From assembly GCA_035495615.1 (NCBI GenBank), contig DATJFP010000026.1, positions 15,635 to 79,634 on the forward strand: 64,000 nt of DNA, read 5' to 3'. Within the stretch, counting starts at the first letter, position 1. Each line of letters opens with the position of its first letter. This DNA is from Verrucomicrobiia bacterium (GTDB taxonomy: Bacteria; Omnitrophota; Omnitrophia; Omnitrophales; Aquincolibacteriaceae). Position numbers and translations under genes: made by a program. This document shows, one piece after another, positions 3,312 through 47,068 of the stretch. The notes under the pieces are model-generated. The model did not search any database and had not been told where the DNA came from. It saw only the letters and a list, made by a program, of their open reading frames with translations.

Positions 3312-3385
3312 TGGAGCGGGATACGGGAATCGAACCCGTGTCCATAGCTTGGGAAGCTATTGTACTACCATTGTACTAATCCCGC
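3312..3385 (-). tRNA. tRNA-Gly (anticodon CCC), CCA encoded
   Basis: Hand-folded: acceptor GCGGGAT/ATCCCGC, anticodon stem ATAGC/GCTAT with loop TTCCCAA, T-arm CGGGTTCGATTCCCG, 3' TCCA. Confidence 0.8.
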
Positions 3386-20149: not shown

Positions 20150-20223
20150 TGGGCGGTACAGGACTCGAACCTGTGACCCCCACCATGTCAAGGTGATGCT
20201 CTAACCAACTGAGCTAACCGCCC
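20150..20223 (-). tRNA. tRNA-Val (anticodon GAC)
   Basis: Hand-folded: acceptor GGGCGGT/ACCGCCC, D-arm GCTCAGTTGGTTAGAGC, anticodon stem TCACC/GGTGG with loop TTGACAT, T-arm ACAGGTTCGAGTCCTGT. CCA not encoded. Confidence 0.8.
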
Positions 20224-27793: not shown

Positions 27794-27969
27794 TTTTGTC
27801 CTGCGGGATGAGATTTCTACGCGATAGCGCCGTCCTTAACTCCTGTCCGAGTCGGCAAATGGAATCGCTTTTAGCGATAAAAAAAGAGCGTCCGGCCGCG
27901 AATAATAATGAGCCCGAAGCTGTTGCTATTGAATGTTTTGTTAGGTATGTTCTTTTCCAGGGGGTTTGC

Positions 27970-29067
27970 ATGGCAAGCAGCTTAAACCACGAAGGATTCC
28001 TCGAATACGCCAGCAAACGGATGATCCGGTACGCGCACAGCGAAAAATTCATGCGCTGGGTATGCCGCTACCTGATCCTCCATCTCCGCCCCACGCAGGT
28101 TTCGGTCGCGCTCTATGATGCCACGCTGCAATCCTTCTGCATCCAGGTTTCCGAAGGGCATCCGAAGGTTCCCTCGCGCCTGATCAGTCTAAACACAAAC
28201 AGCCCGCTGATCCAATGGTTTTTGAACCGCGGCGAGGCCAGCCACATCCGCCGTTCGCGCCGCGTCGTCACGTCGAGCTGCATGGCGCAAAAAGAAGGGC
28301 CGCGGGAACACGAAATTTACGAAGAGCTCGTCCGCCATCACGTCGAGGCCTGCGTCAGGATCGAGACGCGTGAGCGCCTTGCCGGCTATCTCCTCATCGG
28401 GCCGCGTGAAACCCAGCAGCCGTACAGCAAAGAGGACCTCACGTTTTTTCAGATCCTGGCCAACGACATCGGTATCGAAATCGAAAAGGAAGAATACCTT
28501 CATCATGCCCGCCACGATCCCATCACCGGACTGTATAACCGCGCCACGCTGCAGGAAACGTTGGGGGCCATTTTCGAAAAAGAACGGCACAACGACTTCG
28601 CCGCGGCCATGATCGACATCGACCATTTTAAGTCGGTCAATGACCGGTACGGCCATCTTGCCGGCGACCAGGTCATTCGCTGCGTGGCGGATTTCATCCG
28701 CTCCGGCATCCGCAAAACAGACACGGCCTTCCGCTACGGCGGCGAAGAGTTTCTGGTCTTATTCAAGAAGAACGCGAGAAATCCTGACCGCATCATCTCG
28801 GATGATGAATTTCAAAACGACATCATCCTCGCAGCCGACCGGCTTCGGCAAAAAGTGAACGCCCGCCCCGTGACGTGCCTTCAATACGAAATCCCCCTCA
28901 CCATAAGCATTGGATTGACATTTCTGACTCCCCAAACCCGCAGCACTGCGTCCCTGATTGCCGAAGCCGATCGCGCCCTTTATCAGGCCAAGAACGGCGG
29001 GAGAAACCGCGTGGTCGTATTCGCGGAAAGCGAGAGCCGGCAGCTTATTTCGAGAAGATCCCTTTGA
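27970..29067 (+). CDS. GAF-domain diguanylate cyclase (GGDEF)
   Basis: RYGGEEF motif with upstream DIDHFKSVNDRYGH. N-terminal GAF-like region. Start taken at MASSLNHEGF inside the longer ORF from 27796. Confidence 0.8.
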   Translation: MASSLNHEGFLEYASKRMIRYAHSEKFMRWVCRYLILHLRPTQVSVALYDATLQSFCIQVSEGHPKVPSRLISLNTNSPLIQWFLNRGEASHIRRSRRVVTSSCMAQKEGPREHEIYEELVRHHVEACVRIETRERLAGYLLIGPRETQQPYSKEDLTFFQILANDIGIEIEKEEYLHHARHDPITGLYNRATLQETLGAIFEKERHNDFAAAMIDIDHFKSVNDRYGHLAGDQVIRCVADFIRSGIRKTDTAFRYGGEEFLVLFKKNARNPDRIISDDEFQNDIILAADRLRQKVNARPVTCLQYEIPLTISIGLTFLTPQTRSTASLIAEADRALYQAKNGGRNRVVVFAESESRQLISRRSL

Positions 29068-34871: not shown

Positions 34872-36491
34872 TTATCTCCCTTTCCCGACACTAGCCGGCT
34901 CGTTATAAACGTAATTGCTCTTCGGGCCGGGGCCGTTCTTGCGTGTAGACAGCGGTGTCTCTGAAAACTTGTCCAGCTTCACGCCCACATAACCCGGAAC
35001 GCCCATTTCGGGAATGTCCAAACCTTCGACTTCGTCATCCGGCCGGACACGCAGCCCGATCGTGACATCGATCGCCTTAAGCACAATGTAGCCGATGACG
35101 CCCACGTAAACCACGTTTGCAAGAACGCCGATGCAGGAAGCCACAAACTGACTGGGATCGCCATAAAAAAGTCCGCGAACCGTTCCCGCAACGCCGTTCC
35201 AGCCGTCGCCGTACGTTCCGTCGGCGAAAAGGCCCGTGGCCAGAATGCCCCATGCGCCGTTCACGCCATGAACCGCTACGGCGCCGACGGGATCATCGAT
35301 CTTAAGCACGCCTTCAAAGAAATACACGGCTTCGACGACGAGCAGGCCCGAAACCGCGCCGATGATGCAGGCGTTCACCGAATTCACGAAAGCGCAGGGC
35401 GCCGTGATGGCGACAAGGCCCGCGAGCATACCGTTGCACATCATGCTGGGATCCGGCTTCTTGGTGCGGACTAGCCACATCCAAAGCGTTGCGACGAGCG
35501 CGCCGGTCATGGAGGCCAGCATCGTGTTCGTAGCCACGACGGAAATACGCAGGTCCGTGCCCGCCAGCGTGGAGCCGGGATTAAATCCGAACCATCCGAA
35601 GGCGAGAATGAACGTGCCGACAATGGCCATCGGGATATTATGCCCGGGAATCGCGTTGGGAGTTCCGTCCGCATTGAACTTCCCGATCCTGGGGCCAATG
35701 AGTTTCGCGCCCACGAAAGCCAGGACGCCGCCCGTCAAATGCACCACCGAAGAGCCTGCGAAGTCCACATGCCCATGGCCCAGACCGAAATTCTGGCCGA
35801 GCATGGCCAGCCAGCCGCCGCCCCAGGTCCAGTTGCCATAAATCGGATAGATGATGCTGCCCACGAAAAGGCCGTACACGACAAACGCCGAAAATTTCCA
35901 ACGCTCGGCCATGGATCCCGTAGGAATCGTTGCGGTCGTGTCCATGAACACCATCTGGAAAAGGAACATCGCGAAGATCGCGGCGTCATAGGATTGTCCC
36001 GTCAGGAAAAAGCCTTTCATGCCGAAAAGGCCGAAACTTTTTCCGAAAAGGTGCAGCGTAAACTCATGGTTCAGGACATCCACGCCTCCCAGCGTGCCAA
36101 ACGCTCCGATGCCTCCGAACATTAACGCAAACCCGCACACGTAGAAACCCAGCATGCCCAAGGGATAGATCATGAAGTTCATGGACATCGTATGCGCCGC
36201 GTTTTTTGCGCGGCAAAGCCCGGTTTCCACCATGGCAAAACCCGCTTGCATGAACATCACGAGAAATCCGGTGATTAGCGTCCATACAAAGTTAATCGAG
36301 ACCTTGTTATGGCCCACTGCGGTCGCGAGTTCTTGGAGAGTCGGCGCGCCCGCCGTGGCAGCCGTAACGTCAGCAGCAGTTCCGGTCAGTGCGCCGCTCG
36401 GATCGGCATCCTTGGCGAAAGCCAGGACCGGCACTATCAGCCCGAAAGCGAATAGCCCTAGGAAAAAAAGACTCACTAATTTCTTTTGCAT
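34872..36491 (-). CDS. amtB: ammonium transporter
   Basis: 539 aa Amt/MEP family with cleavable signal peptide and 11 TM core. Immediately upstream of glnK on the same strand. Confidence 0.85.
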   Translation of the reverse strand: MQKKLVSLFFLGLFAFGLIVPVLAFAKDADPSGALTGTAADVTAATAGAPTLQELATAVGHNKVSINFVWTLITGFLVMFMQAGFAMVETGLCRAKNAAHTMSMNFMIYPLGMLGFYVCGFALMFGGIGAFGTLGGVDVLNHEFTLHLFGKSFGLFGMKGFFLTGQSYDAAIFAMFLFQMVFMDTTATIPTGSMAERWKFSAFVVYGLFVGSIIYPIYGNWTWGGGWLAMLGQNFGLGHGHVDFAGSSVVHLTGGVLAFVGAKLIGPRIGKFNADGTPNAIPGHNIPMAIVGTFILAFGWFGFNPGSTLAGTDLRISVVATNTMLASMTGALVATLWMWLVRTKKPDPSMMCNGMLAGLVAITAPCAFVNSVNACIIGAVSGLLVVEAVYFFEGVLKIDDPVGAVAVHGVNGAWGILATGLFADGTYGDGWNGVAGTVRGLFYGDPSQFVASCIGVLANVVYVGVIGYIVLKAIDVTIGLRVRPDDEVEGLDIPEMGVPGYVGVKLDKFSETPLSTRKNGPGPKSNYVYNEPASVGKGR

Positions 36492-36683: not shown

Positions 36684-37412
36684 TTAGGCGGGGACGGAAA
36701 TGGACGGAGGATCAATACGAAGACGATATCCCACGGCGGGCTCCGTGAGAATATAAATAGGACGCGCCGGGTCGGGCTCGAGTTTCTTGCGCAGGTTATA
36801 AATAACGACACGCAAAAGATGGTCCATCCGATGGACACTCTGATCATTATTCCAAACTTGTTTGTAGAGCTGCTCCGTTCTGACGATTTTACCCGCGCTC
36901 AAAACCAGGGCCTTCAGCACATCGTATTCCGTCGGCGTGAGATGCTGCGTGCGGTCCCCGACTTTGACGATACGCTGCTCGCCATCGAAAACAAGTTCGC
37001 CGGTCTTGAAAATCGGAGTTCCGCCTTTCGGCAGCCAGCGGCGCATGAGCGCTCGAACGCGGGCTAGAAACTCCGAAGGGCTGAAGGGCTTGGTGACATA
37101 GTCGTCGGCGCCTGCGTCAAGCGCCGCCACTTTATCCGCTTCGTCTCCGCGGACCGAGAGAATCATGATGGGTGTAGCCGCGCGCTGGCGTATCTCTCTG
37201 GCCACCTCGACTCCGCTGATATCGGGCAGTTTCAAATCCAGAATAATCGCATCAGGATGCGCTTTTACCGCGGCTTTCAAAGCCGCGCGGCCGTTAGCCG
37301 CTTCAAAGGTGCGGTACCCCTGGGATTGGAGCATTCTTTTGAGAACGCGCCTCAGCGGACGTTCGTCATCCACGATCAAAATACGCACCCCGTCTTTTTT
37401 AGGCCTAAGCAT
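36684..37412 (-). CDS. OmpR-family response regulator, KdpE-like (pair 1)
   Basis: Receiver domain (ILIVDDE...DLKLPD...DYVTKPF) plus winged-helix output (LTPTEYDVL, GYRL). Confidence 0.8.
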   Translation of the reverse strand: MLRPKKDGVRILIVDDERPLRRVLKRMLQSQGYRTFEAANGRAALKAAVKAHPDAIILDLKLPDISGVEVAREIRQRAATPIMILSVRGDEADKVAALDAGADDYVTKPFSPSEFLARVRALMRRWLPKGGTPIFKTGELVFDGEQRIVKVGDRTQHLTPTEYDVLKALVLSAGKIVRTEQLYKQVWNNDQSVHRMDHLLRVVIYNLRKKLEPDPARPIYILTEPAVGYRLRIDPPSISVPA

Positions 37413-38541
37413 GGGGCTTCTCGATGCAAAAAGGCAATTCCACAATCATTTTCGTCCCCTTTTCCGGCAGATTTTCGGCCCAGATTTTTCCTTGGTGCGC
37501 CTCAACAATTCCTTGGCAAATCGAGAGGCCGAGACCTGTACCCGGAATTTTCTGCGTTCGTTCACCGCGGTAGAACTTATCAAAGATACGATGCAATTCC
37601 CGTTCCGGAATGCCCGGGCCCTCGTCAGAAATTTCAATACGGACGCTTTGCATCGAGGTTTTGATCTCGAGCAAAACCAAAGAACCCCTGGGCGAATACT
37701 TCAGGGCATTGTCGATCACATTGACTAAGACTTTCAGCATCAGGTCGTAGTCGACGCAGGCTTCCGGGAGCTCATCCGGAAGAAGGACGCGCACACGATA
37801 TCCTTCCTCCCCCCGGGATAACTGCTGCAATGCCACTCCGATGAGATCGCTTAAGTCGCATGGTTTCCGGGTCAGCTCTAAAATGCCTCCCTCGACCTTG
37901 GTCATGTCCAATAAATTTTCAACGAGCTGACTGAGTCTCCCCGCCTCCGCGTTGGCTGTCGTAATGAGCTGCCGGCGGGAGGATTCATCCAGGTCCATGT
38001 TGTGGTGCATCAGATTCCCCAGGGCCGCAGTGATCGAGGACAACGGCGTTTTTAGATCATGAGAGATCGAGTTCAACAAAGTTGAATACAGTTTCTCCTT
38101 CTCCCGCAAAAGCTCCATCTGCTGAGTTTTCATGAGGCTGCGTCGGAGGCGCGTCGTCAAAGTGCTGATCGTGATTCCTACAATCAAGAATCCGGCCAGG
38201 GTGACGAAATCGTGCTGACTGAATGTGGCGAAGCTGAATTGCGGCGGGATGAAAAGGTAATCAAAAGCCAGCACGCTGGCGATCGAAGAGGCGATTGCGG
38301 GGCCACGGCCCCATTTGAGCGCAATAATTACGACCCCTAAGAGATAAAAAATAATGAGGTCGGTTGTGATCAGAAAGGCTTTGGCATAGGCAATCCAACC
38401 CGCAAGAAAAGCCGCTGCCACCAACATCAGGCTCAGGATATATGGCATGACGCGATCGGTTTTTTTTCCACCCCACTTCATGGTCATGAGAGCCCCTACG
38501 GATCGATAATTGTATCGAACGTCAGGGAAAGAAAATATCAA
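37405..38541 (-). CDS. sensor histidine kinase, KdpD C-terminal type (4-TM + HisKA + HATPase only)
   Basis: TM block LAFDYLFIPPQFSFATFSQHDFVTLAGFLIVG matches the KdpD membrane domain. LLNSISHDLKTPL H-box. No N-terminal KdpD/Usp domain and no GAF linker. Confidence 0.8.
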   Translation of the reverse strand: MIFSFPDVRYNYRSVGALMTMKWGGKKTDRVMPYILSLMLVAAAFLAGWIAYAKAFLITTDLIIFYLLGVVIIALKWGRGPAIASSIASVLAFDYLFIPPQFSFATFSQHDFVTLAGFLIVGITISTLTTRLRRSLMKTQQMELLREKEKLYSTLLNSISHDLKTPLSSITAALGNLMHHNMDLDESSRRQLITTANAEAGRLSQLVENLLDMTKVEGGILELTRKPCDLSDLIGVALQQLSRGEEGYRVRVLLPDELPEACVDYDLMLKVLVNVIDNALKYSPRGSLVLLEIKTSMQSVRIEISDEGPGIPERELHRIFDKFYRGERTQKIPGTGLGLSICQGIVEAHQGKIWAENLPEKGTKMIVELPFCIEKPHA

Positions 38542-38654: not shown

Positions 38655-39728
38655 ATGCAGAGACAAGACTCGCCGATCAAATATCATTTTATCTGGCACG
38701 GTTATGCCCAGAGCCTTCTCATGGTGGTTCTGGTCACGCTTGGCGGGGAACTACTCAAGCGCACGATCGAGCCCATCAACCTTATCATGTTCTATCTTTT
38801 GGCCGTGATCGTCGCGGGCATCCGCTGGGGCCACGGCCCCGCTGTCCTGACTTCCGTTCTGAGCGTGCTTGCCTTTGATTTTTTTCTCATCCCTCCCTAT
38901 CTGACTTTCGGCGTCGAAGATTTCCAGTACGTCTTTACCTTCGCGGGTTTTCTCATTGTAGGTCTGATCACAAGCGAACTGATGACAAAAACAAAGGAGC
39001 AGGCGCGCAAAGCGCGGCAATTGGAACTGCTTCGAGCGACAAAAAAACTGCAGACAGCGCTCCTCAATTCAGTCTCGCACGACTTGCGCACGCCGCTGGC
39101 TTCGATCATCGGATCCATCAGCATGCTCCTGCAAGACGAGCCTTCCCTCGCCGAAGAAACCATAAAGGGGCTGCTCCGGGACGCCTATGGGGAATCGCTG
39201 CGCTTGAATCGCTTGGTCGGGAACCTCCTCGACATGACGCGGCTTGAAGCCGGCGCTCTGAATCTTTCTTTTAAATCCTGCGATTTAAGAGACGTGCTCG
39301 GCGTGGCTTTGCAGGAGCTCGCCGACAAATTGGAGCAGCGCCGAATTAAAACCCAGATCCCTCACGACCTCCCGGAAATCAGCGCGGACTTTTCTTTGAT
39401 CATGAAGGTGCTCGTGAATTTAATCGATAATGCGGCGAAATATTCGTCTGAGGACACACCGATCCGCATTGCCGCCAAAACGCAGGGCGACCGGATTAAA
39501 ATTGAAATCATGGACGAGGGAATTGGAATTGCCCCCAAAGACTTGAAACCTATCTTCGACAAATTTTACCGCGCTTCCCATCCGTCGACGGTCGAGGGTC
39601 TCGGGCTTGGGCTCTCGATAGCGAAAGGAATCGTGGAGGCGCATCATGGCGAAATCTGGGCGGAAAGCGGCGCGGGAAAAGGGACGACATTCGTCGTGCT
39701 TTTGCCTTACTCCAAGGAGACCGCATGA
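38655..39728 (+). CDS. sensor histidine kinase, KdpD C-terminal type (pair 2, paralog of 37405-38541)
   Basis: LAFDFFLIPPYLTFGVEDFQYVFTFAGFLIVG TM block. LLNSVSHDLRTPL H-box. About 50% identical to the divergent paralog. Confidence 0.8.
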   Translation: MQRQDSPIKYHFIWHGYAQSLLMVVLVTLGGELLKRTIEPINLIMFYLLAVIVAGIRWGHGPAVLTSVLSVLAFDFFLIPPYLTFGVEDFQYVFTFAGFLIVGLITSELMTKTKEQARKARQLELLRATKKLQTALLNSVSHDLRTPLASIIGSISMLLQDEPSLAEETIKGLLRDAYGESLRLNRLVGNLLDMTRLEAGALNLSFKSCDLRDVLGVALQELADKLEQRRIKTQIPHDLPEISADFSLIMKVLVNLIDNAAKYSSEDTPIRIAAKTQGDRIKIEIMDEGIGIAPKDLKPIFDKFYRASHPSTVEGLGLGLSIAKGIVEAHHGEIWAESGAGKGTTFVVLLPYSKETA

Positions 39729-40426
39729 AGGAGCAGCACGCCTTGCGCGCGTTGATTGTCGATGACGAGAAGGCCTTGCGCCGTTTTCTCAAGACCGCAC
39801 TGTCGTCCCACGGCTATCAAGTGTTCGAAGCCGGCAACGGCCTAGAGGCCCTCGAAGAATCCGTATCCTGCCATCCCGACGTCATCATCATCGACCTGGG
39901 CCTGCCCGACAAGGACGGCATCGAGGTCACGCGCGAGATCCGCCGGCGCACGAAGACGCCCATCATCATTTTGTCGGTGCGCGACCGCGAAGAGGACAAA
40001 ATCCAGGCGCTCGACGCGGGCGCGGACGACTACCTCACCAAGCCTTTCAGCGCAGGCGAATTGATGGCGCGTCTGCGGGCCGTCATCCGCCGCCTAGTTC
40101 CGCAAAACGAAACCACATTTTTTAAAGCCGGCAAATTAGCGATCGATATCGGCAAGCACACGGTGGAATTAAACGGCCGCGCCCTCCAGCTCTCGCCGAC
40201 CGAATTCGACATCGTTAAAGTGCTGGTCATGAACGCCGGAAAAGTCGTGACTCAAAAGCAGATCTTGAAAGAAGTCTGGAACAAAACCGAAGAAATGGAA
40301 GGGGCTTCCCATCTTCTCCGCGTCACCATCAGCAATCTGCGCAACAAAATCGAGCCCAATCCCGACCGTCCCACCTATCTTCTCACCGAGCCGGGCGTGG
40401 GATACCGCCTTCATACCGAAGATTGA
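39725..40426 (+). CDS. OmpR-family response regulator, KdpE-like (pair 2)
   Basis: ALIVDDEKALRRFL...DLGLPDKDG...DYLTKPF receiver. LSPTEFDIVKVL...GVGYRL winged helix. ATGA overlap with upstream kinase. Confidence 0.85.
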   Translation: MKEQHALRALIVDDEKALRRFLKTALSSHGYQVFEAGNGLEALEESVSCHPDVIIIDLGLPDKDGIEVTREIRRRTKTPIIILSVRDREEDKIQALDAGADDYLTKPFSAGELMARLRAVIRRLVPQNETTFFKAGKLAIDIGKHTVELNGRALQLSPTEFDIVKVLVMNAGKVVTQKQILKEVWNKTEEMEGASHLLRVTISNLRNKIEPNPDRPTYLLTEPGVGYRLHTED

Positions 40427-40459
40427 TTTGAAAGATTTTCCGCTTACCCATTTCCTCTT

Positions 40460-40504
40460 TTGACTCTCTTTTGACTTGGCCTTCCTTTGCCTCACGGCTA
40501 TCTT
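40460..40504 (+). promoter_or_regulatory. activator-type promoter: 11-bp-phased direct repeat TTGACTC-N4-TTGACTT, then TATCTT -10 element 22 nt downstream, no canonical -35
   Basis: Same architecture with identical spacings recurs at 43682-43726, upstream of the second riboswitch. Confidence 0.35.
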
Positions 40505-40514
40505 TTGCATAGAT

Positions 40515-40695
40515 CGAACAAGCCGAATCCGGATGACGGATCGGGGGACCCAGAGAAGGCTCCGGAGCTCGATGCTTCGGGGCGATAAGCAGCTCGAAAC
40601 TTGGTGTTTTTAGCTATCGGGGCGAATCACTGCAAAGTGAAAGGTTTCCACTCGACCTTAGCCCGACAGCTAACCCCGTAGGCGAAACGGAGAGA
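40515..40695 (+). promoter_or_regulatory. c-di-AMP riboswitch (ydaO/kimA class) in leader of ptsN-like/kimA operon
   Basis: GAAUCCGGAUGACGGAUCGGGGGACCCAG ... GGGGCGAAUC ... GUUUCCACUC ... AGCCCGACAGCUAACCCCGUAGGCGAAACGGAGAG. Conserved blocks remembered from the ydaO motif (GAAUC, ACGG..GGGGGACCCA, GGGGxGAAUC, CCCGAAGG-GCAA-like 3' end). Confidence 0.75.
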
Positions 40696-40796
40696 ACTGT
40701 GCACCGCATTTTCGAACCGCGCTTTTCAATCCTTTCCGTTTCCCCTGGTTTCACCGCCGAAGCGTTCCGCGCAGACGGGCTTTCAAGGAGGACGCC

Positions 40797-41381
40797 ATGG
40801 TTTCACTCATCGTGTTAGGAGGAGCAAAAATGCTGTCGTTTCGAAAGCAAAGGCAGGAAACATCATTAAGGCGCGGGCAGGCCGCCGCGAATCAGAGCTT
40901 AGGCCAAGCGGCGTTAAAAATTTCCGACTACCTGACGTCCGAACAGATTTGTTTTTTCCCCGAGGGAACAAACGCGCTCAGGGTATTCTCGGATTTGATA
41001 GGCACTCTCTCGATACCAAACCGGGAGTTCGCTTTGGAAGCCGTTCTTCGCAGGGAACAAGTCGGCGGGACGATCGTGGCTCCGGGAATCGCGCTTCCCC
41101 ATGCTCGGATTGACGGCACGGACCGGTTGCATTCGGCTCTCGCTCTTTGCCCAAGCGGTATCAAGCTCAGCGAAGACGAACCGGCGATCCGCCTGCTCCT
41201 CCTTTTTGTCAGCCCTTTTACCGAACTGAAAAACCACTTACGCTTTCTGGCCGCGGCAGCAGCTTTATTTCAAGACGAAATGCTTTGCGGCGACATGATC
41301 GCGCTGAAGTCGAGCGATGCCATTTTGGAAAAACTAAAACACAAAGAAATGAAAACCCATGCCGAACATTCCACAAAATAA
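40797..41381 (+). CDS. PTS EIIA type-2 protein, EIIA(Ntr)/PtsN-like
   Basis: ALEAVLRREQVGGTIVAPGIALPHARIDG...LLLLFVSPFTELKNHLRFL aligns with E. coli PtsN around the phosphorylatable His (GIAIPHG). AGGAGG RBS 7 nt upstream. Confidence 0.75.
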   Translation: MVSLIVLGGAKMLSFRKQRQETSLRRGQAAANQSLGQAALKISDYLTSEQICFFPEGTNALRVFSDLIGTLSIPNREFALEAVLRREQVGGTIVAPGIALPHARIDGTDRLHSALALCPSGIKLSEDEPAIRLLLLFVSPFTELKNHLRFLAAAAALFQDEMLCGDMIALKSSDAILEKLKHKEMKTHAEHSTK

Positions 41382-43389
41382 GTCGGTCCCTCGAAACGTC
41401 GTCATTGTGACGACCGCCATGCTGAGCTTTATCAGTTTCTGGCGGGCCGCCGCGATCGTGCTTTGCGATATTGCCTCCACGGTTTATTACATCGGCGGCA
41501 TTGCCGAGCATGCCATCGGAAAAGCCGCTCCGTGGTTTATTTTGGGCGTGATGCTCTTTTCCTACACGGTACGCGCCATTTACATCGAGTCTTGCGGCAT
41601 GTTTGTCCGCGGCGGCGTATACCGCGTCGTCAAGGAGGCTATGGGAGGAACGCTCGCCAAACTTTCCGTCTCGGCCCTGATGTTTGACTATGTCTTGACC
41701 GGGCCCATCAGCGCGGTTTCGGCAGGCCAATACATGGTCGGCCTTTTGAACACGACGTTTCCACACTTCGGCTTACCGTGGCATTTTCGCGCTGATATTT
41801 TTTCCGTTTTGTTCGCCGTCGCCGTCACGCTCTATTTCTGGTGGGAAAACGTTAAAGGCATTCCCGAGTCGAGCGACAAAGCCCTCAAAATCATGATCGC
41901 CACGACGATCATGGGCATCACCATGATCATTTGGAGCGTGACGACGCTCCTCGTGCGAGGCATCCACTGGCCCCCTTTCACTCCCGTCTTTAACGAAGAC
42001 TCGCTGGGCTGGCTGTATTCTCTGAAAGACAAGATCAAACCTCTGGGCGTCCTCGGCCTCACCATCGCCTTCGGCCATTCGCTGCTCGCCATGTCCGGCG
42101 AAGAATCCCTTGCCCAGGTCTACCGGGAAATCAAAGCGCCCAAGCTCAAGAATCTCGAAAAAGCAGCCTTCATCGTCTTTCTCTACAGCATGCTGTTGAC
42201 CACGCTGGGAAGTTTTTTCGCGATCATGATCATTCCCGATTCCGTGCGCATGAGCCAATACTCCGACAATCTGATAAGCGGCCTTGCGATGTATTTCGTC
42301 GGCCCGCTCCAACTCAGACTCCTTTATCAAGCCTTCGTGGTCTTCGTCGGATTTTTAATTCTTGCCGGCGCGGTGAATACGTCCATTATCGGGTCGAACG
42401 GGGTCCTCAATCGGCTGGGAGAAGACGGCATCCTGCCCGAGTTCCTCAGAAAGCCTCATGCCCGTTTCGGCACGTCTTCGCGGCTCATCAATATGACAGT
42501 AGGACTTCAACTGCTGACGATCGTACTCTGCCGGGGGAATATTTACGTGCTCGGTGAGGCCTATGCCTTCGGCGTCATCTGGAGCTTCGTATTCAAGGCC
42601 CTGGCCGTCCTCATCCTCCGCTATAAAGACAAGATGCCGCGCGAATGGAAAGTGCCCTTGAATATCAAAATCAAAGGCCTGGAATTCCCGGTCGGAATCG
42701 CCGCTATTTTTCTGATCCTTCTCCTTACCGCCAGCGCGAACCTTGTGACGAAAAAGGTCGCCACAATTTCCGGCTCCCTTTTTGCCCTTGTCTTTTTTGC
42801 CGTATTTGTGGCTTCGGAAAAGATCAACAAGCGGAAGCATCATGCCCTTCATGGCCAGCATGACATTCACGCGGGCCACATCGACCGGGTCAATCTGAAT
42901 GAGATCGAAAATCTCAGCCCCGAAAGTTGCGGCTGCACGAAACCCCGAAGGGTCATTGTTGCCGTACGAGGCCCGCACAGCCTCAGCCATCTCGAAAAAA
43001 CGCTCCATCAGATCCATCCGGAAGACACCGATGTCGTGGTGCTGACTTCGAAAGTCGGCAAGGGCTACCAGTTGGAAGGCGATTTGAGCCGTGTCGCGCC
43101 GGAGGAAGAAAAGCTCTTTACCCGCGTGATTGAAGTGGCAGAGAAAGTCGGCCGAACCGTCATCCTGCTGTCGGTCCCGACGAACGATCCTTACTACGTG
43201 ATGGCGCGCATCGCGCACGAGTTAAAAGCGCAGGAACTCGTGGTCGGAAAATCTGAAAAATTTTCCCCCGAAGTTCAGATGGAGGAAATCGCGATTGCCT
43301 GGGGCGCCGTGACGCCGCCGCGCCAGCATGTGCCGCCTCTGATGATTCGGATTCTGTGGGATGGGAAAGAAATGACCGAAATGTTCTAA
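41359..43389 (+). CDS. kimA: KimA-family K+ importer (APC superfamily) with C-terminal cytoplasmic Usp-like domain
   Basis: 676 aa, 12-TM APC fold. SGEESLAQV region corresponds to KimA SGVEAISN. C-terminal RRVIVAVRGPHSLSHLEK...VVVLTS...VILLSVP resembles the B. subtilis KimA cytoplasmic domain. Preceded by ydaO-class riboswitch. Confidence 0.75.
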   Translation: MPNIPQNKSVPRNVVIVTTAMLSFISFWRAAAIVLCDIASTVYYIGGIAEHAIGKAAPWFILGVMLFSYTVRAIYIESCGMFVRGGVYRVVKEAMGGTLAKLSVSALMFDYVLTGPISAVSAGQYMVGLLNTTFPHFGLPWHFRADIFSVLFAVAVTLYFWWENVKGIPESSDKALKIMIATTIMGITMIIWSVTTLLVRGIHWPPFTPVFNEDSLGWLYSLKDKIKPLGVLGLTIAFGHSLLAMSGEESLAQVYREIKAPKLKNLEKAAFIVFLYSMLLTTLGSFFAIMIIPDSVRMSQYSDNLISGLAMYFVGPLQLRLLYQAFVVFVGFLILAGAVNTSIIGSNGVLNRLGEDGILPEFLRKPHARFGTSSRLINMTVGLQLLTIVLCRGNIYVLGEAYAFGVIWSFVFKALAVLILRYKDKMPREWKVPLNIKIKGLEFPVGIAAIFLILLLTASANLVTKKVATISGSLFALVFFAVFVASEKINKRKHHALHGQHDIHAGHIDRVNLNEIENLSPESCGCTKPRRVIVAVRGPHSLSHLEKTLHQIHPEDTDVVVLTSKVGKGYQLEGDLSRVAPEEEKLFTRVIEVAEKVGRTVILLSVPTNDPYYVMARIAHELKAQELVVGKSEKFSPEVQMEEIAIAWGAVTPPRQHVPPLMIRILWDGKEMTEMF

Positions 43390-43400
43390 GCGAGAAAAGG

Positions 43401-43685
43401 ATGGATTTCTTTTTAAAATTCACTCTCATCTCTTATGCCTCGATTTTCTTTTTCACACTGGGATTGCGCCTGGCTGTTTCCAGCGAATTGGACTTGCGGG
43501 TCATCCAACTTTTTCTTATTTTTGCCGCTGTCTCGCTTCCTTTGTCTCTGACCTTCAAATCCCAGCCTTTGTATAGCCGTTTTCTGATGTCCCTGACCTG
43601 CACCTCCCTCATTCTGACCGGTTTCCGTTTCGGCAGGAAAATAAAGCGTTTGGGTGAAGAAAATCCCCTCAAACGTCATTTTTGA
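43401..43685 (+). CDS. small 3-TM membrane protein ending ...GFRFGRKIKRLG (paralog of 45622-45891)
   Basis: 94 aa. RBS GAAAAGG. Shares FFLxFxLxSYAxIFFFxxGL...FKSxPL...GFRFGRKI with the ORF following the second kimA. Confidence 0.5.
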   Translation: MDFFLKFTLISYASIFFFTLGLRLAVSSELDLRVIQLFLIFAAVSLPLSLTFKSQPLYSRFLMSLTCTSLILTGFRFGRKIKRLGEENPLKRHF

Positions 43686-43736
43686 CTCGTTTTTGACTCG
43701 TCCAATGCCCTCTCCCCGAGTATTTTGTCACGATTA

Positions 43737-43880
43737 ACGACAAGCCGAATCCCGACAGGGATCGGGGGACCCGATAAAGCGGCTCTCAAAGTTTTGAGCC
43801 ATGGGCGAATCCGCCGGAGCGCGGAGAGGTTTCCACTCAACCTCAGCCCGTCAGCTAACCCCGAAGGCGCAACGGAGAGG
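43737..43880 (+). promoter_or_regulatory. c-di-AMP riboswitch (ydaO/kimA class), second copy, abutting the kimA2 start codon
   Basis: ACAAGCCGAAUCCCGACAGGGAUCGGGGGACCCGA ... GGGCGAAUCC ... GUUUCCACUC ... AGCCCGUCAGCUAACCCCGAAGGCGCAACGGAGAGG. Co-linear with the first copy. The conserved 3' AACGGAGAGG contains the RBS for ATG at 43885. Confidence 0.75.
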
Positions 43881-43884
43881 TGTT

Positions 43885-45612
43885 ATGTCTTTGATGCTCA
43901 AAAAAGTCGATCGCCCGCGCGAATTGAAGTGGTATCAGGCGGGCGCCATGCTGTACGGCGATTGGGGAACCAGCAAGGCCTATGTGCTTGGCATCGCCTT
44001 CGCTCTTGCCGGCCACGCTTCCTGGTTTTTCCTCGGCCTCATGTCCGCGCTTACGGCCCTCATCGGCGTCTGCTACATGGTGATTTGCCGCGTGTATCCG
44101 GACGGCGGCGGCGTTTATTCTTCCGTGAAGCATCGCCACCGCCTGCTCGCGGTGATCGGCGCGTTTCTTTTGATCGCGGATTACGTGATTACCGCGTCGC
44201 TCAGCACGCTCGACGCCTTCCATTATTTCAACGCGCCGCATCCGGAAATCTGGGCCGTGGCCACGATCCTCGTCATCGGCGCCATCAACTGGCTCGGGCC
44301 CAGCAAATCCAGCACGATCGCGTCTTACATCGCCGTCGTGGCCTCGGCGGGCGCCCTGATTCTTTTCGCGGCAACCGTTCCCTCGCTCTCCCATGTGCAT
44401 CTGACCTGGCCCGGCAGCGACTGGCCCAAAAATTGGACGGTTTTCGTCGGCATCGTGCTCGCGCTTTCCGGCGTGGAAGCCATTGCCAACATGACGGGCA
44501 TCATGGAAGAGCCCGTCGAAAAAACATCCAAGCGCGCGATCTGGCCCGTGCTCCTGGAAGTTTCCGTGCTGACCTTTCTGCTTGGCATTGCCATGAATGC
44601 CATCCCGAACCTCAAAGACCATACCGAAGACATGCTCCGCGTCCTGGCCACGCATTATATCGGGCCTTGGTACGGCGCCTTCATCTCGCTCGCGTTCGGC
44701 TTCCTGCTGCTTTCGGCGACCAACACCGCCATCGGCGACCTGGTCAGCATCCAGTTTTTGATGGCCAAAGACCGCGAGCTGCCCGAAGCTTTCTCAAAGC
44801 TAAACCGCTTTGGCATGCCGGGCCTTGCGCTGATCATCGCCACGGCGATCCCCGCGGGCGTTTTAATCTTCGAGCACGATCTGGTTAAACTCGCGGCACT
44901 CTATGCCATCGGCGTGATCGGTGCCATCACGATCAATCTCGGCGCCTGCGCGACCAACTTCAAGATCCCGCTGAGCCGGAAGGAACGCATCCTCCTCGGC
45001 ATCGGCGCGGTCATCCTTTTTTTTATTGAATTGACGATCGCCTTCGAAAAGCACCACGCCCTGATTTTCGCGCTCACGGTCCTCGCGGTCGGATTGTCGC
45101 TGCGCTATGCCGCCAAGACGTTCCTGCCGATTCCGGTGCCGGCGCTTGCGCCCACGGTCAATCTGCTCACCGTTTCCGAAGCCAGAGAAATAGCGCCGCT
45201 TTACAAAAGCTCGTCGCTTGTCGCGATCCGCAGCTTTAATCCCGCGGTGCTCGACGAAGCCGCGCTGCGCGTGAAGGCCCTCAAGGAAAACGCGGTTTAT
45301 TTGAGCTACATCGAGGAAACTCCCACCGTGGCGGAATTGCCGGATGAAATCGAACCGTCCTCTCACTCCCTCGAAGTCCTGGGAGAGGCTCAGAAGGCCA
45401 TGGAGGAACGCGGGGTCACCGGCATCCCGGTCTGGCAGATCGGCGATGATCCCGGCCGCATGATCGCCAAAGCCGCGGCCGAACTTGGAGTCAATACGGT
45501 CATGATCGGGACGACGAGGCGCAGCGCGCTGGTCAACCTTCTCCGCGGCGACGTGCTGCGAACGCTCGCCCGTCATTTACCCAGAGAATGCCGCCTGGTG
45601 ATCAGCGGCTAG
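43885..45612 (+). CDS. kimA: KimA-family K+ importer, second paralog
   Basis: CYMVICRVYPDGGGVYSSVKH matches KimA YRQIIYAYPQGGGAYIVSKE. LALSGVEAIANMTG matches SGVEAISN. C-terminal Usp-like domain. Start moved from ORF-track 43801 to 43885 to clear the riboswitch. Confidence 0.8.
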   Translation: MSLMLKKVDRPRELKWYQAGAMLYGDWGTSKAYVLGIAFALAGHASWFFLGLMSALTALIGVCYMVICRVYPDGGGVYSSVKHRHRLLAVIGAFLLIADYVITASLSTLDAFHYFNAPHPEIWAVATILVIGAINWLGPSKSSTIASYIAVVASAGALILFAATVPSLSHVHLTWPGSDWPKNWTVFVGIVLALSGVEAIANMTGIMEEPVEKTSKRAIWPVLLEVSVLTFLLGIAMNAIPNLKDHTEDMLRVLATHYIGPWYGAFISLAFGFLLLSATNTAIGDLVSIQFLMAKDRELPEAFSKLNRFGMPGLALIIATAIPAGVLIFEHDLVKLAALYAIGVIGAITINLGACATNFKIPLSRKERILLGIGAVILFFIELTIAFEKHHALIFALTVLAVGLSLRYAAKTFLPIPVPALAPTVNLLTVSEAREIAPLYKSSSLVAIRSFNPAVLDEAALRVKALKENAVYLSYIEETPTVAELPDEIEPSSHSLEVLGEAQKAMEERGVTGIPVWQIGDDPGRMIAKAAAELGVNTVMIGTTRRSALVNLLRGDVLRTLARHLPRECRLVISG

Positions 45613-45621
45613 AGGTTCGAA

Positions 45622-45891
45622 ATGCCGGTTTCGAATATCGCTTTCTTCCTGAGGTTTGGGCTCACCTCGTATGCCGCCATTTTCTTCTTTGCCGCGGGGC
45701 TCGGGTTTGCCTTGTCTTATGCCGGCAGCCTGAAACACACGGATTTCGGCCTGCTTTTTTTCTTCATGGCCGCGGCCCTGTGTTTCAGTTTCAAGTCCGA
45801 ACCCCTTCAAGGCCGCCTGATCATCGCCGCCATCTGGGCCTCGATCGTTTGGGCCGGCTTCCGCTTCGGCCGGAAGATCCGGATGCGCTGA
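45622..45891 (+). CDS. small 3-TM membrane protein ending ...GFRFGRKIRMR (paralog of 43401-43685)
   Basis: 89 aa. RBS AGAGG. Conserved blocks shared with 43401-43685. Confidence 0.5.
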   Translation: MPVSNIAFFLRFGLTSYAAIFFFAAGLGFALSYAGSLKHTDFGLLFFFMAAALCFSFKSEPLQGRLIIAAIWASIVWAGFRFGRKIRMR

Positions 45892-46045: not shown

Positions 46046-47068
46046 ATGTCGACAAACGATCAGCCCTCAACTGCGCCCGCGGGCAAAAAACCCAAGATCA
46101 ACGCCCGCTTTCTCAGCCTGGGCAATTTGCTTCTGCCCGTCCTTCTGGTCATCATCGCGCTTCACTGGGGAGACGGCCGGGTTTTTGCCGAGCTGCTGCT
46201 GAAGATCAAGCCCCAATGGCTTGTCCTGGCCGCCCTCTGCCAGATCGGGACTTACCTCTGCGTAACCATGATCTGGCGCACGGTGTTCCGCCGCTGCGGC
46301 ATCCCCATCCGCTCTTATCAATTGTTTGCGCTCAGCATTGCCAAGCTTTTCTTCGACCAGACCCTGCCTTCCTTCGGCGTGAGCGGCAGCGTCATGGCCA
46401 TGCGCGGGTTCATCCGCCGGCAAAGCTCCAAGGGCGCGGCCGCCGCGGCGGTCATCATCAATACCACGAGCCGCTACCTGCCCTACGTGCTGCTGTTCAC
46501 GGCGGCCCTGGCCATCCTCTGGAAACACCACATGCTCAGCAAGCCGCTGGAATACACGGCGGCTCTTTTCATCGCAGTCATCGTCATGCTCATGGCCGCG
46601 ATCCCCGCGCTCGTGCAGCTGGCCATCAATCATAAAACACCGTCCTGGGTGCACCGGTTTGGCTGGCTCGAGAAGGTCCTGAAAACCTTGCGCGAGATCC
46701 CGGTCGAGATCATTGGGGACTGGCGCCTGTGGCTTGTGGCGTGCCTTGCGAACGCCTGCATTTTTCTGCTGGATTCGACGACGCTTTGGAGTCTGTTGTC
46801 GTCCCTCGGCATCGGGACCCATCCCTGGTTCCACGCCTACGTCAGCGACATGGTGTCGTCCGTCGTGACCGACCTGGCCATGGTGCCGGGAAAAATCGGG
46901 GTTTTCGAAGGAAGCTCCGTCACCATGCTGCGGCTCTTCAAATATCCGCTCGAAGAAGCCGTGGCCGCGACGCTCCTTTTCCGCGGCTTCACCTACTGGC
47001 TGCCCATGATCCCGGGATTTATTATCACCCGCCGCGAGCTCGGACAGCACCCTCACGAATCCCGCTGA
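46046..47068 (+). CDS. flippase-like domain membrane protein (LPG_synthase_TM / UPF0104 family), second stand-alone copy
   Basis: 340 aa polytopic. Same family pattern as 9727-10731 and the MprF N-terminal domain. Confidence 0.65.
   Translation: MSTNDQPSTAPAGKKPKINARFLSLGNLLLPVLLVIIALHWGDGRVFAELLLKIKPQWLVLAALCQIGTYLCVTMIWRTVFRRCGIPIRSYQLFALSIAKLFFDQTLPSFGVSGSVMAMRGFIRRQSSKGAAAAAVIINTTSRYLPYVLLFTAALAILWKHHMLSKPLEYTAALFIAVIVMLMAAIPALVQLAINHKTPSWVHRFGWLEKVLKTLREIPVEIIGDWRLWLVACLANACIFLLDSTTLWSLLSSLGIGTHPWFHAYVSDMVSSVVTDLAMVPGKIGVFEGSSVTMLRLFKYPLEEAVAATLLFRGFTYWLPMIPGFIITRRELGQHPHESR

Follow-up and report, generated by a model that had tools for sequence, protein, structure and literature searches.

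The stretch of DNA analysed here (64,000 nt, hereafter the window) had been annotated as carrying a ydaO-class c-di-AMP riboswitch whose first downstream gene encodes an EIIA(Ntr)/PtsN-like protein rather than a transporter, with kimA in second place. The locus raises the question of what such a riboswitch controls when an EIIA gene is the first to follow it, and of how ligand binding could be relayed to that gene across a long spacer.

The aptamer and the genes downstream

The search of the whole window with Rfam cmscan revealed a match to RF00379 (c-di-AMP/ydaO) at 40511-40699 on the forward strand (75.1 bits; E = 1.3e−15), almost twice the gathering score of 38 bits. This match (riboswitch 1) spans model positions 1 to 134 without truncation, with every conserved block intact, and its limits agree within 4 nt with those of the initial annotation (40515-40695). 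The claim of a ydaO-class c-di-AMP riboswitch, for which a covariance-model search had been named beforehand as the check, is thus borne out. The folding of nine related aptamers with RNAalifold gave 31 pairs, eight of which showed compensatory changes on both sides, with few pairs broken. A lineage-specific insertion (40552-40612, forward strand) occupies the variable hairpin of the aptamer: the 59 additional nucleotides fall between model positions 41 and 42 in the cmscan alignment and form a stable stem (−22.2 kcal/mol; z = −2.2).

The 3′ tail of the aptamer, GGAGAGAA (40689-40696, forward strand), is both the 3′ strand of the pseudoknot and a Shine-Dalgarno (SD) sequence. It aligns with model positions 125 to 130 (GaGaGg), and its partner is the loop UCCACUC at 40647-40653. 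Loop and tail covary in the alignment of the nine related aptamers. In the second riboswitch of the window (see below) and in the relatives the pairings are clear and covarying (UCCACUC:GAGAGGA, UCCUC:GAGGA, and UUCCUUC:GGAGGAA), while the pseudoknot of riboswitch 1 is weaker than that of riboswitch 2, with one G-to-A change leaving 3 + 1 + 1 pairs between 40647-40653 and 40690-40696. Riboswitch 1 lies in the 5′ untranslated region, on the same strand as the EIIA and KimA-like genes. By its sequence it is a genuine c-di-AMP riboswitch of the known ydaO class, expected to respond to this ligand. As such it is one further member of an already known class, and the interesting parts are its gene context and its putative relay through an upstream open reading frame (uORF). 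Verrucomicrobia are among the phyla with predicted c-di-AMP riboswitches (PMC6488665). No diadenylate cyclase gene was seen among the ~30 open reading frames of the window that were scanned.

The first gene (40797-41381, forward strand) encodes a PtsN-like EIIA of 194 amino acids. It matches PTS_EIIA_2 (PF00359) with 49.6 bits (cut-off, 27 bits), and its best PDB sequence match is the IIA-Ntr/PtsN structure 1a6j (E = 1.9e−9), with the active-site histidine aligned. The AF2 model (pLDDT of 83) has IIA-Ntr/PtsN structures as its top six Foldseek matches (TM of 0.81 to 0.82; rmsd of 2.2 to 2.8 Å). H102, in the motif ALPHAR, occupies the position of the IPH histidine in Escherichia coli PtsN, and R86, H102, and H147 do not vary among the partners compared, 10 of them close and 3 distant. 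The two closest homologs, P0002 and P0003, are 52 to 54% identical. An N-terminal extension of ~40 residues consists of MVSLIVLGGA and a basic helix. The first 10 codons differ from those of the related locus L121 by six synonymous and no nonsynonymous changes, indicating that the ATG at 40797 is the real start. The description of this protein as EIIA(Ntr)/PtsN-like holds for the fold and the catalytic residues, but its scores are below the NCBIfam equivalog cut-offs for PtsN (TIGR01419, 42.4 versus 138.7 bits; NF008145, 38.3 versus 221 bits), and we therefore call it PtsN-like and not PtsN. The rpoN-operon context of PtsN is absent: the gene is part of a transporter operon, and no rpoN was found in the parts of the window that were scanned. 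EI(-Ntr), NPr, and other components of the phosphotransferase system were not seen among the ~30 open reading frames scanned.

The second gene (41359-43389, forward strand), which overlaps the EIIA stop by 23 nt, encodes a candidate KimA-like K+/H+ symporter of 676 amino acids (APC1). It is a permease of the APC superfamily (Pfam AA_permease_2), and its best match by fold is KimA of Bacillus subtilis. The comparison with PDB sequences by phmmer and hmmsearch gave no match to KimA, and a fold search and hhalign were therefore needed. The top three Foldseek matches are the KimA structures 8b70, 8b71, and 6s3k (E = 1e−15), aligned over the full length (~670 columns), and the family profile matches KimA in hhalign with a probability of 95.3% (E = 2e−8); the KimA query sequence was validated against 6s3k. 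The KimA fold, which we defined as a LeuT-type domain of 12 transmembrane helices followed by a swapped C-terminal nucleotide-binding-like domain, is found in APC1, whose AF2 model shows a C-terminal alpha/beta cytosolic domain at residues 530 to 676. The residues of KimA implicated in K+ binding and H+ coupling are D36, Y43, D117, T121, T230, E233, and Y377 (PMC6994465). In the hhalign alignment, D110/Y111/T114/S118, S246/E249, and Y402 of APC1 correspond to D117/Y118/T121/S125, T230/E233, and Y377 of KimA, and the residues matching the K+/H+ set are invariant in 28 homologs. D37 and Y44 of APC1 have the same 7-residue spacing as D36 and Y43 of KimA, in a first transmembrane helix that lies outside the range aligned by hhalign. 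The annotation of the second gene as kimA is thus to be narrowed to a distant homolog of the KimA type, visible to Foldseek, hhalign, and the residue comparison but not to phmmer and hmmsearch. Sequence and model together point to a KimA-type K+/H+ importer, with K+ as the probable substrate.

A third gene (43401-43685, forward strand) encodes a small membrane protein of 94 amino acids of no known family, without a Pfam or NCBIfam match, that is a conserved partner of the transporter. Its gene comes after that of the transporter in the related loci L042, L122, and L124; in L047 and L048 it lies ahead of the regulator gene.

A second riboswitch unit and shared promoter repeats

Directly after these genes, the window carries a second c-di-AMP aptamer (riboswitch 2; 43733-43884, forward strand), which matches the full RF00379 model with 76.3 bits. 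Its tail, GGAGAGG (43873-43879), is the SD sequence of the ATG at 43885, 5 nt downstream. This ATG opens the gene of a second KimA/KUP-like transporter, APC2 (43885-45612, forward strand; 575 amino acids), which BLASTP aligns with KimA at 24% identity over 417 amino acids (E = 3e−12). The aligned KimA residues are D36, Y43, D117/Y118/T121/S125, T230 (S in APC2)/E233, and Y377. The first transmembrane helix of APC2 reads LYGDWGTSKAY and resembles the IYGD motif carried by this helix in the KUP family (PMC6994465); the C-terminal domain is Usp-like (Pfam Usp). APC1 and APC2 are paralogs with 24% identity, and so are the small membrane proteins that follow them, that of the second unit (45622-45891, forward strand; 89 amino acids) being 43% identical to that of the first. 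As judged from the sequence, riboswitch 2 controls APC2 and the paralogous small protein, presumably in response to c-di-AMP.

Upstream of riboswitch 1 lie the genes of a two-component system. The first (38655-39728, forward strand) encodes a short KdpD-type histidine kinase with the architecture DUF4118-HisKA-HATPase, lacking the N-terminal KdpD/Usp sensor domains in Pfam; in NCBIfam it is closest to the C-terminal part of KdpD, with 261.8 bits versus a cut-off of 1,123 bits. The second (39725-40426, forward strand) encodes a KdpE-like response regulator of the OmpR family (Pfam Response_reg and Trans_reg_C), with KdpE as its best NCBIfam match (224.3 bits, below the cut-off of 325 bits). The pair has neither the full KdpD architecture nor an equivalog score for KdpE. 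Relatives retain the kinase gene upstream of the operon, and the regulator, 65 to 81% identical in related loci, is always encoded directly upstream of it. In L047, full-length kdpD and kdpE adjoin the module, which in L047 and L048 comes directly after kdpC-kdpD-kdpE.

Just downstream of the regulator gene lies a direct repeat with a period of 11 bp, TTTTGAC-TCTC-TTTTGAC (40458-40475, forward strand), a putative operator. It is followed by a −10-like hexamer read from the sequence, TATCTT (40499-40504, forward strand), which places the transcription start near 40511. The same arrangement is found before riboswitch 2, where TTTTGAC-TCGT-TTTTGAC (43680-43697, forward strand) overlaps the stop codon of the first small-protein gene and precedes the −10-like hexamer TATTTT (43721-43726, forward strand). 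TTTTGAC-N4-TTTTGAC occurs exactly twice in the window, each time ahead of a riboswitch and each time followed by 23 nt and a TAnnnT hexamer, so that the geometry is identical at both riboswitches. The shorter pattern TTGAC-N6-TTGAC occurs once each in 9 of the 127 loci of our sample, every time in the interval that separates the regulator gene from the transporter operon. A generic sigma-70 scan of 40300-44100 found no consensus promoter, which fits an activator-dependent promoter. The KdpE-like regulator probably binds these pho-box-like repeats and activates both promoters, and K+ limitation would then switch them on.

From the aptamer tail to the EIIA gene

The initial annotation described a long spacer (~100 nt) before a strong AGGAGG, and this is what we measured: the spacer between the end of aptamer 1 and the EIIA ATG is 97 nt long, and AGGAGG lies at 40786-40791 (forward strand), 5 nt ahead of the ATG. 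It also proposed a transcriptional expression platform, and here the evidence goes the other way. The search for an intrinsic terminator or antiterminator in the leader (40695-40800) found no terminator-like site, leading us to drop the intrinsic-terminator model; the scan of 40300-44100 gave four weak sites elsewhere, at chance level. The minimum free energy (MFE) folds of the whole leader are no better than those of shuffled sequences and lend no support to a strongly structured platform. The tail of the aptamer carries an SD sequence, for which there is a translational precedent (PMC11963983). Riboswitch 1 is most likely a translational OFF switch and not an intrinsic terminator.

The SD-like tail of aptamer 1 (GGAGAG) is followed after 4 nt by a GTG at 40699, which opens a uORF of 39 codons (40699-40818, forward strand). 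The TAG stop of the uORF falls inside a second AGGAGG and its end overlaps the start of the EIIA gene by 22 nt. This start codon, riboswitch 2, and the operator repeat ahead of both aptamers are absent from the initial annotation. The GTG lines up with the ATG that starts a leader peptide in L121, L043, L047, and L048, where the polyproline-containing sequence MK.IS.LYP.I..PSDPPP is conserved and codon changes are synonymous and nonsynonymous in ratios of 6:2, 6:5, and 7:5. The peptide of the window shares ~5 of 17 aligned residues with this conserved leader, a weak resemblance, and has lost the PPP motif. In L128, an analogous uORF of 28 codons has its stop 7 nt into the transporter gene. In three other loci (L046, L042, and L126) the tail is the SD sequence of the main start codon, as in riboswitch 2. 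The PPP codons of L121 pair with the EIIA SD sequence, and in the window the best predicted spacer partner of this SD sequence is 40745-40764, within the uORF.

We give a probability of roughly 65% to the reading that riboswitch 1 and a uORF relay exert translational OFF control over an EIIA-transporter operon under a KdpE-like promoter. Riboswitch 1 would be the 5′ leader of an operon for the PtsN-like EIIA, the KimA-type K+/H+ importer, and the small membrane protein, transcribed from a start ~36 nt after the TTTTGAC-N4-TTTTGAC repeat to which the KdpE-like regulator would bind. The promoter would be turned on by K+ limitation and the mRNA turned off by c-di-AMP, at high K+ or osmotic sufficiency. 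Binding of c-di-AMP would lock the 3′ tail GGAGAG in the pseudoknot and hide its SD sequence. For riboswitch 2, the start codon served by this sequence would be the ATG of the transporter itself. For riboswitch 1, it would be the GTG of the 39-codon uORF, which runs through the 97-nt spacer and 22 nt into the EIIA gene; since the tail then starts the uORF and not the regulated gene, a relay step to EIIA is required. Translation of the uORF would unfold the structure hiding the SD sequence and start codon of EIIA, and the passing ribosomes would keep Rho off the C-rich leader. When c-di-AMP is bound, the uORF would not be translated and the EIIA-transporter operon would stay silent.

Among the other ways of connecting aptamer and gene is an RNA-only relay. 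The CU-rich segment CUUUCCGUUUC (40732-40742, forward strand), a candidate anti-tail/anti-SD element, is complementary over 11 bp to 40684-40694. In the ligand-free state the tail would pair with this segment and leave the EIIA SD sequence free; in the bound state the pseudoknot would retain the tail, and the pyrimidine-rich spacer, no longer paired with it, would pair with AGGAGG and block EIIA translation, with no role for translation of the uORF. The 11-bp helix is present in the MFE fold, and its duplex energy (−22.1) beats 98% of shuffled sequences (−16.3 ± 2.3; 35 of 2,000 reach it). Moreover, UCCUUUCC is able to pair with either AGGAGG, and L131 has no uORF and yet shows CU-rich segments complementary to the tail and to the SD sequence. 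Against this, the helix is neither conserved in relatives nor above chance there, the best partners of the tail and of the SD sequence are adjacent and not overlapping, and thermodynamic modelling of the aptamer in free and locked states gave small and ambiguous differences in SD accessibility. This alternative is unlikely. In eight leaders we asked whether one CU-rich element might switch its pairing from the tail to the SD sequence; the best partners do not overlap consistently, and this model is kept as a rival only. Rho could also provide the main output, the hidden SD sequence leaving an untranslated C-rich leader on which Rho would load, with the uORF acting only as a shield. This is consistent with a spacer that is C-rich and G-poor (34 C versus 23 G), with the absence of an intrinsic terminator, with a uORF beginning right at the end of the aptamer, and with the precedent of the Salmonella mgtA leader. 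However, over these 97 nt the C/G ratio is 1.5, which makes the spacer no more than mildly rut-like. We consider Rho rather unlikely to be the main output, and its involvement is compatible with the uORF relay, not exclusive of it.

A terminator that c-di-AMP would allow to form in the spacer before EIIA, as in Bacillus subtilis kimA, could be expected from the length of the spacer and from the class members of B. subtilis and Bacillus thuringiensis that use one (PMC6488665), and L043, L047, and L048 do have a hairpin and a U-run after the leader peptide and before EIIA. In the window, the only candidate stem of the spacer (~40752-40776) ends in UUUC and the region folds with a z-score of +0.62 relative to shuffled sequence, which together with the terminator scan makes this reading improbable. 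Even less credible is the view of aptamer 1 as a decaying relic in an operon under two-component control only. The insertion and the loss of one pseudoknot pair could be read as decay, and two close homologs of the operon, in L122 and L124, lack any riboswitch. Nevertheless, the score over the full model is nearly twice the gathering threshold with the conserved blocks intact, the insertion is a clean stem in a hairpin known to vary, and about a dozen related loci have kept the riboswitch.

The uORF relay, as the preferred reading, can be extended further, although this extension is less likely than not. In this lineage the riboswitch might gate a leader ORF that in relatives encodes a conserved polyproline peptide, with CCN codons pairing with the downstream SD sequence; ribosome occupancy might then unmask the SD sequence of a dedicated EIIA, and EIIA, c-di-AMP, and a truncated KdpD/KdpE system might jointly control a previously unrecognised and widespread family of KimA-like K+ importers. 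If so, a riboswitch-uORF relay would stack on one operon three layers of K+ control that are usually studied in separate model bacteria.

Known systems and recurrence of the module

The leader of B. subtilis kimA (ydaO) is the founding RF00379 riboswitch, and the window resembles it in the class of the aptamer and in a KimA-type symporter with the same K+/H+ residues. The logic expected, off at high c-di-AMP, is shared as well. The B. subtilis leader uses an intrinsic terminator (bioRxiv 10.1101/2023.07.05.547876), whereas that of the window has none, places an EIIA gene and a uORF between aptamer and transporter, and follows a promoter with a response-regulator repeat; moreover, the transporter is only ~16 to 25% identical to KimA. 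The closest precedent for the tail is the riboswitch of Thermoanaerobacter pseudethanolicus, in which a pseudoknot of nucleotides 83 to 88 with 125 to 130 sequesters the SD sequence ahead of a GUG start and c-di-AMP represses translation (PMC11963983). Riboswitch 2 is a straightforward example of this arrangement. Riboswitch 1 has the same tail and then a GTG, but this start opens a 39-codon uORF and not the regulated gene. The arrangement would be a new example of a pseudoknot-SD riboswitch controlling a gene ~100 nt downstream, and a testable variant of the expression platform.

The leader can also be compared with that of Salmonella mgtA, which combines a Mg2+ riboswitch, the proline-rich ORF mgtL, and Rho, and in which the translation of mgtL influences downstream expression. 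A short proline-rich ORF in a riboswitch leader is common to mgtA and to the relatives of the window, whose leader peptide carries PSDPPP. Ligand and aptamer are different, and so is the site of the uORF, which here starts at the SD tail of the aptamer; the copy in the window lacks the polyproline run. Our literature search found no paper joining a c-di-AMP riboswitch with a leader peptide.

PtsN (EIIA-Ntr) of Proteobacteria takes part in the control of K+ homeostasis, with TrkA among its targets. It also acts on KdpD (PMC6488665) and directly binds the K+ transporter YcgO (bioRxiv 10.64898/2026.08.14.744764). The EIIA of the window shares with it the EIIA-2 fold, the Arg/His/His active site, and a link to K+ transport and a KdpD-type kinase; it differs by its N-terminal extension of ~40 residues, by its scores below the equivalog thresholds, and by its translational coupling to a KimA-like operon. 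By analogy, it probably adjusts the transporter, the short KdpD-like kinase, or both after translation. This would extend PtsN-type regulation of K+ transport beyond Proteobacteria, in the form of a PtsN-like EIIA hard-wired to a K+ importer. For the combination of c-di-AMP riboswitch and PtsN, the literature search gave PMC6488665 only; the ydaO gene lists of Nelson 2013 and Block 2010 may tabulate EIIA.

The riboswitch is ordinary; its setting is unusually layered, since the same operon is also apparently driven by a two-component regulator of the potassium type. In B. thuringiensis, a c-di-AMP riboswitch governs kdpFABC, a K+ uptake system responding to K+ limitation, and for kdp operons, regulation by a riboswitch and regulation by KdpDE were reported to exclude each other (PMC6488665). 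In contrast, the window apparently stacks a KdpDE-like system and a riboswitch on one KimA-like operon, suggesting that a riboswitch and a KdpE-type operator can coexist. The locus also gives a functional handle on a widespread family, whose more than 8,000 homologs are annotated merely as “APC family permease” or “amino acid transporter.” The KimA fold, the K+/H+ residues, the c-di-AMP riboswitches, and the neighbouring KdpDE-like regulators suggest that this family consists of KimA-type K+/H+ importers.

In 107 loci with EIIA homologs that are more distant (L002-L039 and L049-L119), neither the riboswitch motif nor a KimA-like neighbour was found. Closer to the window, 12 of the contigs sampled have the riboswitch ahead of a member of the KimA-like transporter family, and the order riboswitch-EIIA-transporter recurs in eight related metagenomic contigs, so that the EIIA-first arrangement, described earlier as unusual, is indeed so but not unique. 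There are also EIIA-transporter pairs that lack the riboswitch; EIIA and transporter are paired in the window, L001/L045, L129, and L130. EIIA is thus a conserved partner of the KimA-like transporter family. The window comes from a metagenome-assembled genome labelled Verrucomicrobiae, with relatives in Omnitrophota and Elusimicrobia.

Tandem riboswitch units and layout of the locus

The points of interest in this locus are a conserved EIIA-KimA-like module, twin riboswitch units, a putative stacked two-component operator and a proposed leader-ORF relay, the last being best developed in relatives. Scanning the whole window with the covariance models of Rfam 15 identified a c-di-AMP riboswitch (RF00379, ydaO/yuaA leader) at 40511-40699 (+), riboswitch 1, which scored 75.1 bits (E = 1.3e-15) against a gathering score of 38 bits and matched 134 of 134 model positions without truncation. 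This bears out the ydaO-class riboswitch placed at 40515-40695 in the initial annotation. Only one feature is odd: model positions 41 and 42, in the variable hairpin, are separated by a 59-nt insertion (40552-40612), which forms a clean stem. The same scan revealed a second full-length copy, riboswitch 2 (43733-43884, +; 76.3 bits), absent from that annotation. RNAalifold analysis of nine related aptamers (window and metagenomic relatives) gave 31 consensus pairs, 8 of them with compensatory changes. In the aptamer alignment, the loop-tail pairing covaries among relatives (UCCACUC:GAGAGGA, UCCUC:GAGGA, and UUCCUUC:GGAGGAA); this pseudoknot is weaker in riboswitch 1 than in riboswitch 2. The aptamer of riboswitch 1 is genuine and adds a member to a class already described; its probable mechanism, in which a pseudoknot sequesters the Shine-Dalgarno (SD) sequence, has precedent too.

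The layout built from ORFs and Pfam/NCBIfam scans comprises two tandem riboswitch-controlled transporter units, all on the forward strand. A short KdpD-type kinase (38655-39728; DUF4118-HisKA-HATPase, without the N-terminal KdpD/Usp domains) and a KdpE-like response regulator (39725-40426) precede riboswitch 1, which is followed by the PTS_EIIA_2 protein EIIA (40797-41381), the 676-aa AA_permease_2 transporter APC1 (41359-43389), and a 94-aa membrane protein (43401-43685). APC1 overlaps the end of EIIA by 23 nt, and the two genes are translationally coupled. Riboswitch 2 is followed by APC2 (43885-45612), a 575-aa permease with a Usp-like C terminus, and an 89-aa membrane protein (45622-45891). 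The two small proteins are paralogs (43% identity) sharing a C-terminal GFRFGRKI motif, and neither matched a Pfam or NCBIfam family. Each directly follows a KimA-like transporter, a pairing kept in relatives, and they may be accessory subunits.

Expression platform and leader ORF

The suggestion of a transcriptional expression platform was not borne out: a terminator scan of 40300-44100 found no terminator-like site in 40695-40800 and four weak ones elsewhere, a number within chance expectation, and the leader fold was no better than shuffles. The conserved 3' tail of riboswitch 1, GGAGAG (40689-40694; Rfam model positions 125-130), is a strand of the long-range pseudoknot. In the riboswitch of T. 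pseudethanolicus, the pseudoknot sequesters the SD, a GUG start comes next, and c-di-AMP represses translation (PMC11963983); riboswitch 1 has its tail at the same position, followed after 4 nt by GTG 40699. The aptamer tail is the regulated gene's own SD in riboswitch 2 (GGAGAGG, 5 nt, ATG 43885) and in three of the loci fetched around EIIA or APC1 homologs (L046, L042, and L126). In L120, ~210 nt of AT-rich sequence (1143-1355) separate the riboswitch tail from the EIIA start, and L120 has lost the ATG found directly after the tail in L046, which it otherwise resembles; this has the look of an insertion into the leader.

GTG 40699 opens a 39-codon upstream ORF (uORF) spanning the spacer; its stop codon, TAG 40816-40818, is 22 nt inside EIIA and within a second AGGAGG. 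The GTG lines up precisely with the ATG that starts, at the SD-containing riboswitch tail, a leader peptide of 23 to 27 residues, MK(M/I/T)IS(R/E)LYP(L/C)I(S/T)(I/L/V)PSDPPP..., conserved in L047 (5853-5924), L048 (5747-5818), L043 (760-831), and L121 (117-200), whose codon differences are more often synonymous than non-synonymous (6:2, 6:5, and 7:5). The window peptide, which has no PPP, resembles this leader weakly (~5 of 17 residues). An unrelated 28-codon uORF occupies the same position in L128 and runs 7 nt into the transporter gene. In L121, pairing is predicted between the polyproline codons (GCCUCC) and the SD of EIIA; the best predicted partner of the window's EIIA SD (40745-40764) falls inside the uORF. 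Our literature search found no paper pairing a c-di-AMP riboswitch with a leader peptide.

We prefer a two-state relay through the uORF. When c-di-AMP is absent, the tail SD would be free and the uORF translated, and its ribosomes would unmask the EIIA start and protect the C-rich leader (34 C versus 23 G); when c-di-AMP is bound, the pseudoknot would hide the SD, leaving the uORF silent and the operon off. A relay by RNA alone, through a helix between tail and spacer, is possible: the 11-bp pairing of 40684-40694 with 40732-40742 beats 98% of shuffles, but it is not kept in relatives, and calculations of SD accessibility were ambiguous. Involvement of Rho is plausible.

EIIA and KimA-like transporters

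By sequence, the closest solved relative of EIIA is E. coli IIA-Ntr (1a6j; E = 1.9e-9), with the active-site histidine in register (ALPH102AR versus AIPHGK), and the six best Foldseek matches of its AF2 model (pLDDT 83) are all IIA-Ntr/PtsN (TM ~0.82). The family shows no variation at R86, H102, or H147. The first gene thus fits its description as EIIA(Ntr)/PtsN-like, while scoring 42 bits against the curated PtsN equivalog threshold of 139; EIIA is PtsN-like, not PtsN. It carries an N-terminal extension of ~40 residues, and its codons 1 to 10 (MVSLIVLGGA) show six synonymous and no non-synonymous changes relative to L121, indicating that the true start is ATG 40797 and not the internal ATG 40830. 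A second perfect SD (AGGAGG, 40817-40822), in which the uORF stop codon is embedded, precedes the in-frame ATG 40830-40832, 11 codons into EIIA; this second ATG corresponds to the EIIA start in L043, L047, and L048. Two EIIA isoforms, or termination-reinitiation at the second SD and ATG, are possible.

KdpD is a known target of PtsN (PMC6488665; bioRxiv 10.1101/2023.07.05.547876), which also binds YcgO, a K+/H+ antiporter, directly at its cytosolic regulatory domains (bioRxiv 10.64898/2026.08.14.744764). The neighbours of EIIA are a coupled KimA-like transporter with a cytosolic C-terminal domain and a kinase comprising little beyond the KdpD transmitter part. The most economical reading is that EIIA would be dedicated to regulating the transporter, the kinase, or both at the post-translational level. 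No genes for diadenylate cyclase, EI, or NPr were found among the ~30 window ORFs scanned.

APC1 had no phmmer or hmmsearch match in the PDB. The top Foldseek matches of its AF2 model (pLDDT 78) were three KimA entries (8b70, 8b71, and 6s3k; E = 1e-15), aligned from end to end, C-terminal domain included, and ranked above cation-chloride cotransporters and amino-acid transporters. The KimA reference sequence was validated in two ways: 21 of 21 residue numbers from PMC6994465 and PMC10284832 agree, and it matches 6s3k_B with 1316 bits over residues 1-607. Using hhalign, the APC1 family profile matched KimA with 95.3% probability, placing D110/Y111/T114/S118 on KimA D117/Y118/T121/S125, S246/E249 on T230/E233, and Y402 on Y377, residues with roles in K+ binding and H+ coupling (PMC6994465). 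The aligned K+/H+ residues are invariant in 28 homologs; D37 and Y44 are spaced as KimA D36 and Y43, TM1 being outside the aligned range. APC2 is 24% identical to KimA over 417 residues (BLASTP; E = 3e-12), with all K+/H+ residues in register. Because of these alignments, APC1 and APC2 are best read as KimA/KUP-type K+/H+ symporters, distant relatives and not orthologs; the initial call of kimA as second gene holds for fold, profile, and residues, but only at that distance. The APC1 family has >8,000 members, annotated merely as APC permeases or amino acid transporters.

The placement of EIIA before the transporter, which the initial annotation had called unusual for this riboswitch class, is indeed so, yet it is a conserved module and not an accident, since it recurs across related loci. 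The operon is modular: a short KdpD-like kinase and a KdpE-like regulator come first, then the direct repeat, then a riboswitch and EIIA (in that order, each optional), and finally APC1 and the small membrane protein. Riboswitch, EIIA, and APC1 occur together in the window, L041, L042, L043, L046, L047, L048, L120, and L121; the riboswitch lies directly on APC1 in L126/L127, L128, and L131; EIIA and APC1 occur without it in L001/L045 (Elusimicrobia), L129, and L130; and L122-L125 have only the two-component system. In L047 and L048, the module sits after kdpC, full-length kdpD, and kdpE. APC1 is 58 to 89% identical among these loci, whereas its EIIA partner evolves fast (28 to 43%), which explains why a word-based search found only 14 EIIA homologs. 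The 107 loci carrying more distantly related EIIA homologs had neither the riboswitch motif nor a KimA-like neighbour.

Putative two-component input and genomic neighbourhood

Across the 64-kb window, the exact repeat TTTTGAC-N4-TTTTGAC has only two copies (40458-40475 and 43680-43697, both +), the second overlapping the stop codon of the small-protein gene. Both end 36 nt before the start of an Rfam match and are followed, after 23 nt, by a TAnnnT hexamer (TATCTT and TATTTT, respectively). Of 127 fetched loci (~1 Mb), 9 contain a single copy of the form TTGAC-N6-TTGAC, which in all nine lies in the gap separating the regulator gene from the transporter operon, with or without a riboswitch. 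Activator sites of the OmpR/PhoB family classically pair two 7-bp direct repeats, set at an 11-bp period, directly beside the -35 region; the pho-box-like repeat upstream of each -10-like hexamer has this arrangement. We infer that the adjacent KdpE-like regulator drives both promoters. In kdp operons, riboswitch and two-component control were reported to be mutually exclusive (PMC6488665), whereas the window operon would stack a putative two-component input on a c-di-AMP riboswitch.

A second short KdpD-like kinase (37405-38541, -) and KdpE-like regulator (36684-37445, -) lie divergently, followed by an ammonium transporter gene (34872-36491, -) that is not preceded by the TTTTGAC repeat. In L040, an EIIA homolog is likewise close to genes for a kinase, a regulator, and an Amt transporter. 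The window also encodes a full MprF-like lysyl-phosphatidylglycerol synthase and two stand-alone LPG_synthase_TM proteins (29045-31600, -; 9727-10731, -; 46046-47068, +), one of these genes being directly downstream of the second transporter unit. The Rfam scan detected two tRNA genes (3315-3385, -; 20150-20223, -). Two GGDEF diguanylate cyclase genes (533-1804, -; 27796-29067, +) indicate c-di-GMP signalling in the same genome region.
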